Below, in pieces: positions 3,004 through 51,225 of a DNA stretch of 64,000 bases; position 1 is the first letter of the stretch; the number at the start of each line of letters is the position of its first letter. This DNA is from a virus. Lineage: Duplodnaviria > Caudoviricetes. Location: IMG/VR virus record IMGVR_UViG_3300020577_003313. The stretch is one strand, 5' to 3'. A program made the position numbers and the translations under genes. Under the pieces are notes generated by a model. That model ran no database searches. It saw nothing but the letters and a program-made list of their open reading frames with translations, and was not told the origin of the DNA.

Positions 3004-4025
3004 CTATAATTAGTGATAGCAACTTCCCAAATCCTACAGTACTTAACGCGATAGACTGCGTATCCTCTTCGAGATACTTAAATAAGGTAGACGAGTCTGT
3101 TTCTATAATTAATGTTTGCCAGGATTCGCAGAATCCTAGCTTAGTCATAGTTAGTACAAGCTTGATCGGAGCATTTTTATTTACTCCTTTCTGCAAAATA
3201 CTTAGCGTAGACGGAGACACATCATATACTACTTTAGATATAGAAGCGCCTATTGCCGTAGGTCATTATAGAAATGCAGACATACCGATAGACACTCACT
3301 GCATTACAGCAAACCCAGAAATTGTATTTGACTTTGGTAGAGTAATTCCTAACTTCCTTTCTTGTTCTACAATTGTTTTTACTTTAGGAATGGTTGGCAC
3401 AGTGCCCCAGTCTTTTGGAGTTAACTTCCAGCCGCAGACCCCTACTGTAACATATACATGGACAAAAGGTGTATTACCGAGACCCATCGGTCTCAGCTAT
3501 AGTAATGACTCACTAATGGTAACTTTCCAGTATGATGGATCAAAAGATTGCTCCTGTAGCATACAGTGTGTGCAGCCGTTAGGAGTTAGCAGAAACCTAA
3601 AGTTCTGTCCAAACGAGACTCAAGCTCTTAAAATCAATACTTCTCTATCTGGTGATCCTTACACATTTACTCTTGCTCTGCAAGACTCAGTCGGCAATAC
3701 TTCGTCCATTGTAATTACATCTGTCTATAATGTAATCCCGAGGGCGCCATCAGTCAGCTTTGCTTCTAGCCCTAACAGAGTCGAAATATTTACAGACAGC
3801 CTTTCAGCAAATGGTATGGATCTAGGTGAGGCACAATATCAAATAATTAAATACGCCGGAACAGTTTCTAATCACGTAGTCTGGAAAGACTGGTCAGATC
3901 GGCCACAATCGTATTTTATTGATAGAGACGTATTGCCTAATCAAATTTATGGCTACGCTGTAAGATACAGAGGCAAATTCAATGATATCTCAAACTTGTC
4001 TTCTTGGACAACGATAAGTACATAA
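3000..4025 (+). CDS. structural protein with C-terminal Ig/FN3-like domain
   Basis: 341 aa; ends YFIDRDVLPNQIYGYAVRY...SNLSSW, an FN3-like pattern. Confidence 0.55.
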   Translation: MTIISDSNFPNPTVLNAIDCVSSSRYLNKVDESVSIINVCQDSQNPSLVIVSTSLIGAFLFTPFCKILSVDGDTSYTTLDIEAPIAVGHYRNADIPIDTHCITANPEIVFDFGRVIPNFLSCSTIVFTLGMVGTVPQSFGVNFQPQTPTVTYTWTKGVLPRPIGLSYSNDSLMVTFQYDGSKDCSCSIQCVQPLGVSRNLKFCPNETQALKINTSLSGDPYTFTLALQDSVGNTSSIVITSVYNVIPRAPSVSFASSPNRVEIFTDSLSANGMDLGEAQYQIIKYAGTVSNHVVWKDWSDRPQSYFIDRDVLPNQIYGYAVRYRGKFNDISNLSSWTTIST

Positions 4026-45911: not shown

Positions 45912-47343
45912 GATACTAATCAGTACTCATTCGCCACAAACCCCAACGGGGTTAGGAGCTACTGTAAGAAACATATTCAAGCCATTGATTCAGCACTATC
46001 CTGGGAAATATGATATTAGCCAGCTAGGTTACTTTCATATTCCTGATCAGCAGTTTCATATGTTTGATATTCCTTGGCCTATCTATCATACAAAGATCAA
46101 TAGAAAGCCAGACAATAGTTTAGAACATGATCCTGCGGATATGTATGGCCAACAATCATTTACTGAAGTAGTAAGTAGAGTTAAGCCAGACATTGTATTT
46201 GGTTACGGAGATATGTGGCACTTTGACCATCTGTTGAATTCTCCTTTGAGAAATTCTTTCAGACTTCTAAGCTACTACACCATCGACGGCCAGCCCTACT
46301 ACGGCAATCTTGAAGCAGATGGAAGTACAGAGTGGGGTAAGAAATTAACAAAGACAGATCGTCTTGTAGTGCTGTCACACTTTGGTGTGAAGTCTTTGAA
46401 GGAATCTTGTCCGGAGTTATCTAGTACACCTATTGATGTTAGGTACCATCCTCTCGATTTTAAGATGCACAAATTCCTGTCACCACAGGATAAGATGAAA
46501 TTTAGAAAGCAAGTTTTTGGTAATAATTTACCAGATGATGCTTTCATTATAGGCTGGTGCGGAAGAAATCAGTTCAGAAAACAGAACTATAAACTATGGG
46601 AAGCTCTGCACTACATGGTCTACGGAGACTATATTGAGTGCAAAGACTGTGGAAGAGTAACTCTAAAAGAGTTTAACCATTCTACTCGACAGACCCGCGC
46701 TGTCGGTGAGCTTACTATGTACGATGCCAACTATGATTACTCAGAGTGCTGGCATTGTAAGTCTAAGAACATTGTGAGCGGTAAACCGCTCAATAATGTA
46801 TTCATGTGGTTCCATATGTCGAAGGGAGAGAACTTCTACTCTCCAAACTTCCACGAAAGAATGTGGAACGTCAGTAATCGCTGCATCTGGACCAACGGAC
46901 TAGAAGGTGTTAGAGGTCTACCTGACCAATCAGTCTTTGATACAATGGCCCTATGGGACTGTATGTATTATCCTACTGGCGGAGAAGGGTTCAGTAACCC
47001 AGCTTTCGAAGTTCTAGCTTGTGGAGTTCCAGTTGTCTACGCCAACTATTCTTCTCATGCTGAGTTCTGTTCTCAAGGCGGACTTCCAGTCCGTGTTAGC
47101 TACATCCCTGAGCCAGTAATTGGTATTCAGAGATCTATCGTAGATACTGGACATGCTATCGAACAACTACTTAAGCTCTATAGAGATCCAGAGTTAAAAC
47201 TAAGACTGGGCGTCTCTGGTAGAAGTTATGTCTCTCAGTTCACTACTGACACCATGCCTATGGCATGGGATAGCATCTTTACTAGCATGATGAAACAACC
47301 ACTACCTGCTGAAGGTTCAAAAATATACACAACGGTGCTCTGA
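45892..47343 (+). CDS. GT-B (GT4-like) glycosyltransferase with Zn-ribbon insertion
   Basis: TGLG, GRNQFRK, EGFSNPAFEVLACGVP; inserted CKDC...CWHC. Confidence 0.85.
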   Translation: MNKKPIKILISTHSPQTPTGLGATVRNIFKPLIQHYPGKYDISQLGYFHIPDQQFHMFDIPWPIYHTKINRKPDNSLEHDPADMYGQQSFTEVVSRVKPDIVFGYGDMWHFDHLLNSPLRNSFRLLSYYTIDGQPYYGNLEADGSTEWGKKLTKTDRLVVLSHFGVKSLKESCPELSSTPIDVRYHPLDFKMHKFLSPQDKMKFRKQVFGNNLPDDAFIIGWCGRNQFRKQNYKLWEALHYMVYGDYIECKDCGRVTLKEFNHSTRQTRAVGELTMYDANYDYSECWHCKSKNIVSGKPLNNVFMWFHMSKGENFYSPNFHERMWNVSNRCIWTNGLEGVRGLPDQSVFDTMALWDCMYYPTGGEGFSNPAFEVLACGVPVVYANYSSHAEFCSQGGLPVRVSYIPEPVIGIQRSIVDTGHAIEQLLKLYRDPELKLRLGVSGRSYVSQFTTDTMPMAWDSIFTSMMKQPLPAEGSKIYTTVL

Positions 47344-47344
47344 A

Positions 47345-48529
47345 ATGGATTACTCTGATTTAACGTTTGATTGGGTAGGAGAGATCACCGCGATACGCGG
47401 TTATGGGCTACAGGCAAGAAGAATCTTGAGACCTCTTATTGAAGGCGGAGCCAACGTCAAATTAATTCAAGACGAGGACTATGTCCCTCAAGACAGAAGA
47501 ATCACTGACCCATGGTGGTTAGACCAAATCGAGAAGAGTAAAGCTAAACCAGATTCTCCCGTGAGAATCTGCTACTCGATTCCTAACCTCTACAAACCAA
47601 ACCCTAAGGCTATTAACATAGGCTACACTATGTGGGAGACCGATGAGTACCCGCGCGAGTGGGTACCACTTATAAACCAGATGAATAGATTCTGGGTAGG
47701 CACTCCTAGCTTAGTTCAAAGCGCAATCAAGGCTAAGGTAACAGTACCTATTGATACAGTATCAGCCACTATTGATCTGACCGAATGGTCACCAACAGGA
47801 CCCGTTAGTAAGGTAGCGGAGATTCCTGATGGAACAGTCAAGTTCATGTTTGTGGGTGACTGGATTCCTAGAAAGAACTACCAAGACCTAGTTATAGCCT
47901 TCGGACACGCCTTTTCAGGCGTGGACGATGTAGCACTAATCATCAAGACCTGGTCCTCTAGCTCAAACCCAGAGGATAGAAAGCAGATCGAGAGAGGGGT
48001 TAGATTCTTCATGGACAAGCTAAAGGGCCTAACAAGGCCCAAGATCTACCTACTCGCAGATATGATCGAAGAGAAAGCTCTCATCAATTTAATGAGAGGC
48101 GCGGATGTGTATACTACAGCATCACACGGAGAAGGATTCGATCTACCTATGTGCCAGGCCATGGCATTAGGTAAAGTAGTAGTAGCAACCAACTACTTAG
48201 CCCATGCTGACTACATGGATGAAACTAACAGCATCCCTGTAAAGTATACTAAGCGCCCGGTTACATTCGCCTCGGCGCCAATGTATGATGCTTACCAGAT
48301 GTGGAGTGCTCCAGACATGGAGGACTACATAAACAAGCTAAGAATAGCTTACCATGTGGTAAAGTCTAAGCAGGCGCATCTTCTCGGAGAGAAGGCACGA
48401 AGCACGGTAACAAACTTGTTCTCACCAGAGAACAACACACCTAAGATAGCTCAGGTGATAAGAAAAGCACTAGGCAAAGATGCTAGTAGCAAGGGCATCC
48501 TAGAGCTAATCAACTCTATTCTTCCTTGA
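47345..48529 (+). CDS. GT-B (GT4-like) glycosyltransferase
   Basis: GYG, YTMWET, RKN, SHGEGFDLPMCQAMALG. Confidence 0.88.
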   Translation: MDYSDLTFDWVGEITAIRGYGLQARRILRPLIEGGANVKLIQDEDYVPQDRRITDPWWLDQIEKSKAKPDSPVRICYSIPNLYKPNPKAINIGYTMWETDEYPREWVPLINQMNRFWVGTPSLVQSAIKAKVTVPIDTVSATIDLTEWSPTGPVSKVAEIPDGTVKFMFVGDWIPRKNYQDLVIAFGHAFSGVDDVALIIKTWSSSSNPEDRKQIERGVRFFMDKLKGLTRPKIYLLADMIEEKALINLMRGADVYTTASHGEGFDLPMCQAMALGKVVVATNYLAHADYMDETNSIPVKYTKRPVTFASAPMYDAYQMWSAPDMEDYINKLRIAYHVVKSKQAHLLGEKARSTVTNLFSPENNTPKIAQVIRKALGKDASSKGILELINSILP

Positions 48530-49025
48530 TGGGAGGCTCGGGATTCGAGCCTTCCTGTGCATCAGCGATATCCTCGCCGATCTCCAGAGTAGCTAAGGCT
48601 AGGTTACCGAATATATCTAGAAGGGGGAAGCTGTCGATCAGTCTTCCCCATAGCTGTAAAGCTATTTGAATAAAGATAATGATCTCGATGTCACTATTCT
48701 TTGCTGCAAAATCTTCTATTTCGGAACCATCTGTTGACTCTCCAGTCTCTGGATCTATCATTGACAAGACTGAATGGAAAGTCATCGAATAGAGTTCTTT
48801 TTCTGGGTTAAAGTCTGCCCAGATCTTGTCATTATCAAATCCTAATCTGGAAGTCTTGGCATCATAGCGACTAGGAAACCTAACCGCTACAAAGTCTACC
48901 TTCCTCTCAGAATTTTGATTCGTTACTATACCGTAGGACATTTCAATCTCTGGTATATTCAGAGATGCGTCTTCTGGTATAGTAATAGAACCTGTTATTG
49001 ACTTGGGATAAACAGAAGCTGTCAC
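48516..49025 (-). CDS. hypothetical acidic protein
   Basis: 169 aa; GTGA overlap with orn. Confidence 0.5.
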   Translation of the reverse strand: MTASVYPKSITGSITIPEDASLNIPEIEMSYGIVTNQNSERKVDFVAVRFPSRYDAKTSRLGFDNDKIWADFNPEKELYSMTFHSVLSMIDPETGESTDGSEIEDFAAKNSDIEIIIFIQIALQLWGRLIDSFPLLDIFGNLALATLEIGEDIADAQEGSNPEPPIKEE

Positions 49026-49606
49026 GTGGATGTCTGAGCCTTTACAGAACCGTTGACTAGCTCGATCATTTTTCTGTAAATGCTGATCGAGTATTCTAGG
49101 TCAGATATTGCTCTATGATTCTTAGAAGGGCTTTCGCCTTCTAGGAAAGTCTTGAAAGCAAGTCTGAAAACACTTACATCAAAGTTTCTGTAGTGAAGCC
49201 TAGAGTAGATGTTTGGCCAATCTATCTTTACCCACTCCTTATCGAAGTGGATAGAAGAACCTGCTATGATTAACTGATGGTTCGGCGGTAGCTTAGTATC
49301 AATCAATTGAGCAATCGCGGCCTCTTCTGTTACTATAGAATCCTCGTAGTAACAGTTCCTGCTCTCAATAGTGAGTAGGTCGAGAAGCCTATTCTTAGTA
49401 TGCATCTCAACAATATCTGGATGCATTAAAGACTTAGCAGATTCGACATTCTGTCGAATTAGGTTATCCTTTCTGAAGATCTCTCTTAGATTTAAGTCTG
49501 TACAGATACAGGCGTATTCTAAGATTCGACCGTTGTCTACATCGAGACCCGTGGTCTCTAGATCAATCCAGAGTAAGAACTGCGGGATATCAGTTTTATT
49601 TGTCAT
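49022..49606 (-). CDS. orn: oligoribonuclease (DEDDh)
   Basis: WIDLETTGLD, MHTKNRL, GSSIHFDK, LHYRNFDVS, HRAISD. Confidence 0.88.
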   Translation of the reverse strand: MTNKTDIPQFLLWIDLETTGLDVDNGRILEYACICTDLNLREIFRKDNLIRQNVESAKSLMHPDIVEMHTKNRLLDLLTIESRNCYYEDSIVTEEAAIAQLIDTKLPPNHQLIIAGSSIHFDKEWVKIDWPNIYSRLHYRNFDVSVFRLAFKTFLEGESPSKNHRAISDLEYSISIYRKMIELVNGSVKAQTST

Positions 49607-50133
49607 GACAATTCAGCCTTAACCTTCATTAGTAAAGAATCTATTTCCCTTCTAGGAATGTTCATCTGCTCGGAAACTTCTTCAACACTTTGTTTGTCTA
49701 TGGCTATCCTAGTAAGGATAGCTTTCTCAGTATCATTAGAAGTTAGATCCTCAAGAATAAACTCCAGGCTATGGGCAATACCGTTAGTATGGGTAACTAC
49801 CATAGATTTGAAGTCAGTTTCTCGACGGCGCCTAACTGCAACTTTTCTGTATTCATCAATACAGAAATTCTTCACTGCATTAGTAATGTAAGAAAGTACA
49901 TTCTTATGCTTCTGAAGAATGTCGATGTTGTTAACTATCTTGGTCAATGTCCAGTTGATAGAAGACATTAACTCATAGTTAGTTATAGATAACTTCGAAG
50001 ATACCTTAACCTTCCAGGTTAAGAAAGGAGAAAGTATTGCTACAAACTCTTCTCTAGAACCTGGAATTCCATTCTTGATGTCATCAATTAATTGATGAAT
50101 CCTTACTTGGACTTCTTTCTTATCAGAGAAAGG
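49603..50133 (-). CDS. ECF/sigma-70-like factor; frame open to 50133 but first canonical start only at 49968
   Basis: Extension reads ...IHQLIDDIKNGIPGSREEFVAILSPFL..., then YITNAVKNFCIDEYRK (region 2) and SVEEVSEQMNIPRREI (region 4). Confidence 0.65.
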   Translation of the reverse strand, partial: PFSDKKEVQVRIHQLIDDIKNGIPGSREEFVAILSPFLTWKVKVSSKLSITNYELMSSINWTLTKIVNNIDILQKHKNVLSYITNAVKNFCIDEYRKVAVRRRRETDFKSMVVTHTNGIAHSLEFILEDLTSNDTEKAILTRIAIDKQSVEEVSEQMNIPRREIDSLLMKVKAELS

Positions 50134-50467
50134 TTATTGGGGCAGCGCCCCCATTTGTCACTGCTGGGGCCTTGCTAGAAGTTTCTACTTCAGGCGTAGG
50201 ACTGTCTTTCTTAGTTTCAGTCTTGATAACTGGGCTTCCGCCCACCTCAATACTCATACCAAGAGCAGACGCTACCGAGATGTAGCTAGCAATGTTAGCA
50301 GTTTCACCCTTCAAGATGGTCTTGATGGAGTTAGAAGACAATCCAGTCTCCTTAACTAGGGTACCCATTGAGATGTTCTTGGAAATAAATCCAGCACGAA
50401 GTGCTACGGAAATTTCCTTTACCTGCTGCAAAACTTTATCAGAGTGTGTCTTTGTCTTATTAGCCAT
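50123..50467 (-). CDS. XRE-family HTH protein with disordered tail
   Basis: ISMGTLVKETGLSSNSIKTILKGETANIASYISVASALG. Confidence 0.75.
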   Translation of the reverse strand: MANKTKTHSDKVLQQVKEISVALRAGFISKNISMGTLVKETGLSSNSIKTILKGETANIASYISVASALGMSIEVGGSPVIKTETKKDSPTPEVETSSKAPAVTNGGAAPITFL

Positions 50468-50502: not shown

Positions 50503-51225
50503 TCACAAATTAATGACAACCGGCGGCTGTAGTGTTTTGTAATCTCTTTTCAAAGAGCAAACATTATACAGATCCACATTGCCTAACTTGGTGCTACCAT
50601 AAGCTTCGTGGATATGTCCAAATATCCCCGCCTTCAGCTTAGGTAACTGCTTAATTCTTTCTAGTAATCTAGTAGAGCCTACACGATTGCCTTCTAGGCA
50701 ATGATCTAGTGGCGATAACCTAGGAGGACCATGACAAACAAGTACTTCAGTATCATCTTCTATAGCAGAGTAAATCTTTCTTAGAAGAGGATGGTTAGTA
50801 TCTGGTTCAGCAGAAGGCCCTGGACCTCCGTGGTATGCATTATCCTTACCAGGATCGTGCTCTAGTCCATTAAACGCCCAATCAAAAAAGAAAGGTGTCC
50901 ACGGTGTACCATATACCTTTAGACCTTCTAAAGTAACGCTCTTATCTACAAGATAGTGAACATTACTAGGAATGTAATCCTTTATTTCTTTATTGGTATA
51001 CTTATTGGTTAAAGTTTTACCAGTAAAAAAGAAATCATGGTTACCAGGTATAAAGACTTTATGCTTAGCTTGATCTAAGCTAGAAAACCAGTTCAAGAAA
51101 CTTGATACTTCCATTTCAGATCCATGAAGAGTAGCATCTCCTGCATGAATTAGAATGTCGCATTCCTCTATTTGAATTCTGGAATGATTGTTGTGAGTAT
51201 CACTGATACAAACTAGCTTAGTCAT
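50503..51225 (-). CDS. calcineurin-like metallophosphoesterase
   Basis: ISDTH, HAGD, PGNHD, HGPP, FGHIHE. Confidence 0.9.
   Translation of the reverse strand: MTKLVCISDTHNNHSRIQIEECDILIHAGDATLHGSEMEVSSFLNWFSSLDQAKHKVFIPGNHDFFFTGKTLTNKYTNKEIKDYIPSNVHYLVDKSVTLEGLKVYGTPWTPFFFDWAFNGLEHDPGKDNAYHGGPGPSAEPDTNHPLLRKIYSAIEDDTEVLVCHGPPRLSPLDHCLEGNRVGSTRLLERIKQLPKLKAGIFGHIHEAYGSTKLGNVDLYNVCSLKRDYKTLQPPVVINL

Follow-up and report, generated by a model that had tools for sequence, protein, structure and literature searches.

The stretch of viral DNA analyzed here (64,000 nucleotides; IMG/VR record IMGVR_UViG_3300020577_003313, Caudoviricetes), referred to below as the window, carries on its minus strand a gene for a helix-turn-helix (HTH) protein that is directly followed by a sigma factor frame lacking a canonical start codon at its N-terminal end. 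Features of this gene pair are given on the minus strand unless noted otherwise. The HTH gene (50123-50467) has 114 codons, begins with the ATG at 50467, and ends with ACC TTT CTC TGA TAA, where TGA (50125-50123) and TAA (50122-50120) form tandem in-frame stops (50120-50125) and the unshifted product ends one codon (CTC) past TTT. The sigma frame is offset by +1 and stays open for 176 codons, from CCT (50133) to TGA (49605-49603). It was noted by direct reading of the sequence that a sigma-frame TAA (50134-50136) stands immediately 5' of this CCT and sets the 5' limit for any frame change at this place. Because of the +1 offset, the sole stop-free passage between the two frames consists of the 11 nucleotides from 50133 to 50123. 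Here lies the candidate +1 shift site, ACC TTT C (50128-50134), which is read as ACC (50134-50132) and TTT (50131-50129) in the HTH frame and as CCT (50133-50131) and TTC (50130-50128) in the sigma frame.

Counted from TTC (Phe) to TGA, the sigma coding sequence (49603-50130) specifies 175 residues of the extracytoplasmic function (ECF) type, with a sigma-2 and a putative sigma-4 region. The first ATG, GTG, or TTG in this frame is the ATG at 49968 (codon 56), and none of these codons is found in the N-terminal 55 codons (49969-50133), which encode the sigma-2 helices at residues 5-20 and 26-45. Two ATT codons are present at 50100 and 50088, and neither a canonical start nor an Ile-codon or CTG near-cognate occurs between CCT TTC and codon 12. 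This is the only coding-strand open reading frame (ORF) of the window with a long start-less extension that is not covered by another gene. A first-pass annotation, made from the letters of the window, had described the open frame, the missing start, the ATT positions, and the +1 offset, and its account of this anatomy was correct in every detail.

Judged by sequence profiles and a predicted structure, the frame from 50133 to 49603 is a full two-domain ECF-type (group 4) sigma factor. An exhaustive search returned 30 homologue clusters, and the profile built from them bore out the sigma-2 homology by matching SigW of B. subtilis (5wuq_A, query residues 15-175, E = 1e-9) and RpoE of E. coli (2q1z_A, residues 14-172, E = 1e-6), as well as SigI6. 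The AlphaFold2 model has a mean predicted local distance difference test (pLDDT) score of 89.5, with helices at residues 5-20, 26-45, 52-68, and 79-111, and the scores reach 94-97 at residues 11-40 within the start-less part. Every top match of a Foldseek comparison against the PDB was a sigma factor, with weak E-values (3e-3 and above). The sigma-4 region matched Pfam Sigma70_r4_2 below its cut-off (E = 0.004; 17 bits against 25.7); it lies inside the SigW and RpoE profile alignments and is modeled as a four-helix C-terminal domain with pLDDT 96-97. The phage protein resembles SigW (5wuq) and RpoE (1or7, 2q1z) in its predicted sigma-2 plus sigma-4 composition, its length of about 175 residues, and the near full-length matches, but the identity is just 13-16% and the Pfam models remain below their cut-offs. 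It also differs from both in being phage-encoded, in always following an XRE-like HTH gene, and in having no recognized anti-sigma gene downstream.

The 55 start-less codons were found to be an integral part of sigma-2, as indicated by the homologue alignment, the SigW and RpoE profiles, and the helices of the model. The start-less part aligns with SigW and RpoE from about residue 5-12, and the full-length members of the homologue clusters, which are Met-initiated and have 175-190 residues, align from query residue 5-18 onward. The motif F-x-D-K-K is conserved in the sigma frame at the junction. For the nine codons from D-K-K to the ATT at 50088, the ratio of nonsynonymous to synonymous polymorphism (pN/pS) among the four closest lineages was 0.43 in the sigma frame, compared with 1.5-1.7 in the other two frames, which points to constraint on the protein in the sigma frame only. 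The family consensus retains a Lys and a Leu 5' of the ATT-bearing L-I, and this includes the members that start with Met.

We then considered the gene pair across 15 lineages, comprising the window and 14 relatives from metagenome assemblies (L001/2, L003, L004, L005, L006-8, L009, L010, L011, L012, L013/14, L015, L016/17, L018, and L019) whose sigma proteins share 25-57% identity. The HTH gene lies directly 5' of the sigma gene with overlapping frames in all lineages, and the downstream frame is +1 in 14 of the 15 (it is +2 in L001). Nine of them, the window included, have no ATG, GTG, or TTG from the junction to the conserved helix-1 motif, and gene callers truncate the sigma protein of the start-less lineages to 111-145 residues. 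The sequencing runs containing this sequence were labeled as riverine, wastewater, activated sludge, and freshwater. Searches of the GenBank phage collection at the protein level and for distant DNA similarity found no relatives, nor did scans of IMG/VR, queried with the protein and with alignments of the sigma and HTH families, or a scan of species genomes. In these searches, the phage family was not represented in the GenBank phage collection or IMG/VR.

The upstream protein is Cro/C1 (XRE)-like, with a putative HTH domain at about residues 1-75, followed by a low-complexity tail of about 38 residues that ends in ITFL. It matched Pfam HTH_26 under the cut-off (E = 0.025) and PHROG transcriptional-repressor families with E-values of 1.5e-4 to 3e-3, and the homologues of L013 and L018 have precomputed HTH_3 matches. 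Aligning 15 homologues revealed a conserved N-terminal domain, whereas the tails differ in both length and sequence, with one Phe as the sole exception. The tail is linker-like and remains open up to the junction in every lineage.

In 13 of the 15 lineages, an HTH-frame TTT followed by C (12 cases) or T (one case) lies inside the overlap of the two frames. The shared string is read as TTC or TTT in the sigma frame and thus encodes Phe in both frames; the residue after it is variable in both, which indicates that the nucleotide string is what is conserved. The HTH-frame codon is TTT in 13 of 13 cases, whereas at other places in these gene pairs 43% of the Phe codons before a pyrimidine are TTT (P = 2e-5 with all lineages taken as independent, 7e-3 with six), and in the 69 genes of the window 30% are. 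The joint chance of a TTT-pyrimidine string in every one of these overlaps was estimated at about 1e-14.6, again if the lineages are independent. The codon before TTT is ACC in seven lineages and TCC in two, giving NCC TTT Y in 9 of 13. Both are rare codons (14-18% of Thr codons are ACC, and 8-13% of Ser codons are TCC), and the 69 window genes, with 20,569 codons in all, contain just two in-frame NCC TTT Y strings. In the window, the CC before TTT cannot be translated in the sigma frame, since TAA precedes CCT.

The extent of the overlap was also informative. In all 13 lineages, no stop interrupts the sigma frame between TTT and the end of the HTH gene, a total of 93 codons (P = 2e-4, based on the +1-frame stop rate of 8.7% in window genes), and 5' of TTT the sigma frame closes after 1-28 codons, in line with chance. 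L012, the one lineage in which sigma has an unambiguous ATG of its own, lacks TTT-Y, which favors the slip. The HTH stops are TGA, TAA, or TAG and lie 1-30 codons past TTT. In this phage the stop comes one codon on, and the intervening CUC is its rarest Leu codon (7.7%). As a separate observation on the 69 window genes, it was noted that in-frame TTT precedes a pyrimidine in 20% of cases and TTC in 54% (P = 1e-23). This bias is much stronger than those of ATT/ATC, AAT/AAC, and TAT/TAC, and is consistent with selection against shift-prone UUU-Y.

From these sequence comparisons, we lean slightly toward +1 frameshifting at UUU_Y as the origin of the sigma protein, with a 287-residue HTH-linker-sigma fusion produced beside the free HTH protein. 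The sigma ORF would be start-less because it is not separately initiated, and ribosomes would enter at the HTH ATG (50467), translate the HTH domain and its flexible tail, and arrive at ACC-UUU-C (50134-50128). There, a minority may slip by +1 as the peptidyl-tRNA-Phe re-pairs from UUU to UUC, and reading would go on in the sigma frame, yielding a product with the HTH domain, a linker of about 38 residues, and the sigma factor. The remaining ribosomes would read CUC, stop at UGA-UAA, and release the 114-residue HTH protein. One initiation event would in this manner give both products at a fixed ratio, with sigma always below the HTH protein. In a computed translation, a single Phe reading of TTTC yielded the 287-residue product, and no other in-frame TTTC was triggered. 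The predicted trans-frame tryptic peptide of the fusion is APAVTNGGAAPITFSDK. The tethered HTH domain may provide an extra DNA contact or autoinhibit the sigma factor. On the present sequence evidence, the chances appear even that this arrangement holds throughout a clade of uncultured phages from freshwater and wastewater, whose ECF-like sigma would be produced solely as the C-terminal portion of a +1 frameshift product beginning with an XRE-type HTH protein.

A programmed +1 fusion had been proposed in the first-pass annotation, which offered both a slip at TTT-C and a four-base reading of TGAT. The former is the better supported option, given the TTT-Y string in 13 of 15 lineages and its conservation at the nucleotide level, and the latter fared poorly, as described below. 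Several other mechanisms were weighed and set aside. Slipping on the last sense codon, as in prfB, would require re-pairing in the +1 frame, of which none of these codons (CUC, AGA, CAA, UGC, CAG, GGC, and others) is capable, and a Ty1-like CUU-AGA slip is compatible with L003 and L005 only. Transcriptional slippage would have to act on a run of three T residues, which is too short, and UGA read-through would meet the TAA that directly follows.

A number of observations weigh against the proposed frameshift. The codon after UUU varies among the lineages (CUC, CUU, CUA, CAA, CAG, UCA, and CCA), and no conserved stimulator was detected: the lineages have no upstream Shine-Dalgarno (SD)-like element, and folding of the 50 nucleotides after TTT and the 42 nucleotides before it in the 13 lineages gave no shared structure (mean z of -0.7 and -0.9). 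Since in-frame TTT-Y occurs 13 times elsewhere in the gene pairs, the tetranucleotide alone cannot define an efficient site. Six lineages have a possible start for the sigma gene, five of them with TTG, GTG, or ATG, in addition to the clean ATG of L012. In L012 this ATG stands directly after a stop, with an 8-nucleotide overlap of the two genes, so at least one relative makes sigma separately and family members need not encode a fusion. Since relatives that have a start for sigma (L012 and L013) show the +1 offset as well, the offset is ancestral and no proof of shifting.

The absence of fused homologues points in the same direction. No in-frame HTH-sigma fusion was found among the 30 homologue clusters, all of which have at most 190 residues. 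A query with the conceptual fusion returned no match, though the sensitivity of this search was poor, as a known 161-residue relative was also not returned, and a query of longer proteins with the HTH protein gave no fused homologue, which is weak evidence. The first-pass annotation had asked whether homologues are fused or carry an ATG at this place; none proved to be fused, nine lineages are start-less, and among the others an own start is possible, with a clean ATG in L012. The lineage L001/L002, which is represented by identical sequences from two samples, is a further difficulty, as ATT replaces TTT and the sigma frame is +2, so that a single +1 slip cannot serve it, and a CTG overlapping the stop (CTGA) could start its sigma gene. 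L001 is the strongest argument for initiation of sigma coupled to translation of the HTH gene, which is weighed below. At positions 5860-5900 of L001 (identical in L002), a 17-nucleotide string across the stop is the same as in the window. Its +1 frame contains a run of six A residues followed by the rare codon CGG, at which a second +1 shift would be required.

The main competing explanation is that sigma is made separately from a non-canonical start, with ATT at 50100 or 50088 in this phage and ATT, ATA, ATC, or CTG in relatives, probably by termination-reinitiation coupling to the HTH gene; we consider this possible but rather unlikely. Such a weak start would hold sigma levels low. In the distant relatives L012 and L013, sigma is separate and has an ATG or GTG overlapping the 3' end of the HTH gene, which suggests that coupling is ancestral, and in all lineages the HTH stop lies 10-20 codons 5' of the conserved helix-1 I-K, the place where a sigma N-terminus would be expected. 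Each start-less lineage offers an Ile-codon or CTG near-cognate 0-12 codons past the HTH stop, with ATT in the 50088 column in six of the nine, and L001, with its +2 frame and its CTG overlapping TGA, fits coupled initiation naturally, as does the absence of fused homologues from the searches. However, no near-cognate is fixed in position, since the closest relatives carry GTT or GTA in the 50100 column and several relatives have GTA, GTC, or GTT in the 50088 column, and Ile and Leu codons would be expected in an amphipathic helix anyway. The ATT start had been put forward in the first-pass annotation as the simpler alternative, and the ATT codons are indeed present, but initiation at them is disfavored both by this replacement at 50100 and by the residues 5' of both codons, which are conserved as sigma-frame protein, helix 1 beginning at residue 5. 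A non-canonical start would also leave unexplained the constant TTT plus pyrimidine after a rare NCC, the sigma frame that is open back to TTT, and the nine lineages that have regained no start although one change (TTA to TTG, or ATT to ATG) would suffice. The window genes start with ATG in 56 of 69 cases and show little SD signal. It was noted that few window genes have a recognizable SD motif and that their upstream regions are A/T-rich, which hints at a host with little reliance on SD pairing.

Initiation further downstream, at the ATG at 49968 (49966-49968), would give an N-terminally truncated protein of 121 residues and leave the upstream open frame untranslated. This ATG is the sole canonical start and was chosen by gene callers (P0001; truncated calls P0002-P0005), yet we regard its use as very improbable. 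In near-identical strains from three other studies (X5, X7, and X8), plus-strand position 49967 is changed from A to G, turning the ATG into ACG, and for this reason it is not the start; the relatives have Leu, Glu, or Gln at this position. The 55 codons upstream of it show protein-level conservation and homology with full-length sigma factors, and two sigma-2 helices would be lost, so the earlier suggestion that initiation at 49968 might yield the functional protein was refuted. The contigs from these three studies also have G at plus-strand position 49992, which is synonymous in the sigma frame and agrees with constraint on the protein. An indel from sequencing or assembly, by which a start was deleted or a single gene was split, had also been raised, and we consider its probability negligible, having found no support for it. 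The contigs assembled from the likely source run, at a depth of 157, match the window exactly, and an independent study yielded a contig that covers 49848-50293 without an indel. The two-frame layout also recurs in 14 other, independently assembled lineages, so that the check for indels came out clean and an assembly error is excluded as the reason for the missing start.

The remaining alternative involves a tRNA gene of the window (28042-28116; ARAGORN cloverleaf, anticodon ttca) with an 8-nucleotide anticodon loop CUUUCAAU, C73, and an encoded CCA, which was proposed to decode the UGAU at the HTH stop as four bases and in this way to gate entry into the sigma frame. Such a one-step reading of TGAT does enter the sigma frame, and the HTH genes of five lineages end in TGA, but we judge quadruplet decoding at this junction to be highly improbable. 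The four-base anticodon UUCA would pair with UGAA, and the junction reads UGAU. The same layout occurs with a TAA or TAG stop in seven lineages (L003, L004, L005, L010, L015, L016, and L018), these stops thus being as frequent among the relatives as TGA, and the HTH stop is followed by U, G, A, or others. In the window as a whole, genes end most often in TGA (32 of the 69, 16 of them as TGAT), and an efficient reader of UGAN would derail many genes. Quadruplet reading would also skip the sigma-frame Phe, Ser, and Asp codons even though F-x-D-K-K is conserved, and it is left unsupported by the variation of the HTH stops among TGA, TAA, and TAG at 1-30 codons from TTT. No link between the tRNA and the sigma junction was found. 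The TGA-N-ATG junctions cited alongside this idea (47341-47347 and 52127-52121) do exist, but they are plain 1-nucleotide spacers before real ATG starts.

A further feature of the sigma gene is a perfect 16-nucleotide palindrome, CATCAATTAATTGATG, at codons 13-18 (50082-50097), which is unique in the window and begins 31 nucleotides 3' of TTT. Its 12-nucleotide core occupies the corresponding position in L003, L004, L005, and L016, where none of its synonymous sites has changed, and both outer pairs are altered on both sides in L016. The palindrome is absent from the more distant lineages. Judged from its sequence, it could form an RNA hairpin or serve as a DNA operator for an HTH dimer.

Programmed +1 frameshifts are few in bacteria and phages. 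Release factor 2 (prfB) uses the site CUU UGA C, in which the stop is the A-site codon, and requires an SD-like upstream stimulator. The junction described here is similar in that a bacterial +1 shift would occur near an in-frame stop, which in this phage is one codon past UUU; it differs in that the stop is 1-30 codons off in relatives and an SD-like element is unconserved. The tail chaperone proteins G/GT of phages depend on a -1 frameshift at a heptanucleotide and are structural proteins. They share with the proposed HTH-sigma arrangement two products with a common N-terminal part, a set ratio, one start, and a phage genome, while the shift here would be +1 and its product regulatory.

Sites of the form UUU_Ynn are described as especially prone to bacterial +1 frameshifting and as the type of site used for YopN-TyeA (PMC5009743). 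The transcription activator FseA is made by a +1 frameshift at UUU near the 3' end of msi172 (PMC5009743), and in influenza A virus the PA-X shift site is UCC_UUU_CGU (PMC8310308). By analogy, the HTH-sigma mechanism would join this known class of UUU_Y +1 frameshifts. In its logic, the low-frequency fusion of two regulatory ORFs, the closest known system appears to be FseA, which is encoded on the symbiosis island of Mesorhizobium loti (msi172/msi171; PMC5009743): the +1 shift takes place at a UUU late in the upstream ORF and leads into the downstream ORF, and the fusion, whose level frameshifting holds down, acts as the master regulator of transcription for a mobile element. FseA is an unrelated protein and no sigma factor, and its element is an integrative and conjugative element rather than a phage. 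A conserved Trp four codons before its shift site has no counterpart here, and frameshifting was demonstrated experimentally for FseA, whereas we infer it for the HTH-sigma pair.

The YopN-TyeA pair of Yersinia (PMC5009743, PMC4914553) likewise consists of adjacent, overlapping partner genes with a UUU-pyrimidine +1 shift late in the first gene, and its fusion is made beside the unfused product. TyeA is mainly synthesized as a separate protein, from a start within its own gene, in contrast to the downstream ORF here, which is without a canonical start, and the function of the pair is in type III secretion control. PA-X (PMC8310308) shares the CC-UUU-C core, the proposed re-pairing of tRNA-Phe from UUU to UUC, and the lack of a need for a 3' RNA structure. 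It is produced on eukaryotic ribosomes, and its pause is ascribed to the rare CGU codon, while the next codon varies by lineage in the phages. A literature search for a sigma factor made by programmed frameshifting returned no such case. To our knowledge, no sigma factor has been described that requires recoding for its synthesis or that is tethered to an XRE-type HTH domain.

If the proposed frameshift is true, a conserved and comparatively well-defined UUU_Y site would be added in at least 13 lineages. A phage transcription-initiation factor would be made strictly below the amount of its DNA-binding partner and would be tethered to that partner, and phage transcriptional reprogramming would be metered at the ribosome. 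The shift rate could follow the supply of the tRNA for the codon after UUU, which is the rare CUC in this phage, and the phage carries unusual tRNAs. As gene callers truncate the sigma protein, annotations of the family are systematically wrong, and it would be recovered by annotating phage regulatory genes in a way that allows for frameshifts.

The surroundings of the gene pair were also recorded. An RNase T-like exonuclease gene (49022-49606) lies downstream, and its ATG overlaps the sigma stop (ATGA). Just 5' of the HTH gene, at the end of a metallophosphoesterase gene, a terminator-like hairpin with a T-rich tail is present at 50516-50530, so the HTH, sigma, and exonuclease genes may be transcribed as a unit of their own. 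On the coding strand, the stretch between the HTH and sigma genes showed no promoter-like site, and an Rfam search at their junction gave no match. The relative L003 shares synteny with the window in having a metallophosphoesterase gene upstream and glycosyltransferase genes nearby, and it carries tRNA-His(GTG) and tRNA-Tyr(GTA) genes (L003 positions 3690-3857) about 500 nucleotides downstream of its sigma gene, the only tRNA genes seen in the short flanking sequences of the relatives.

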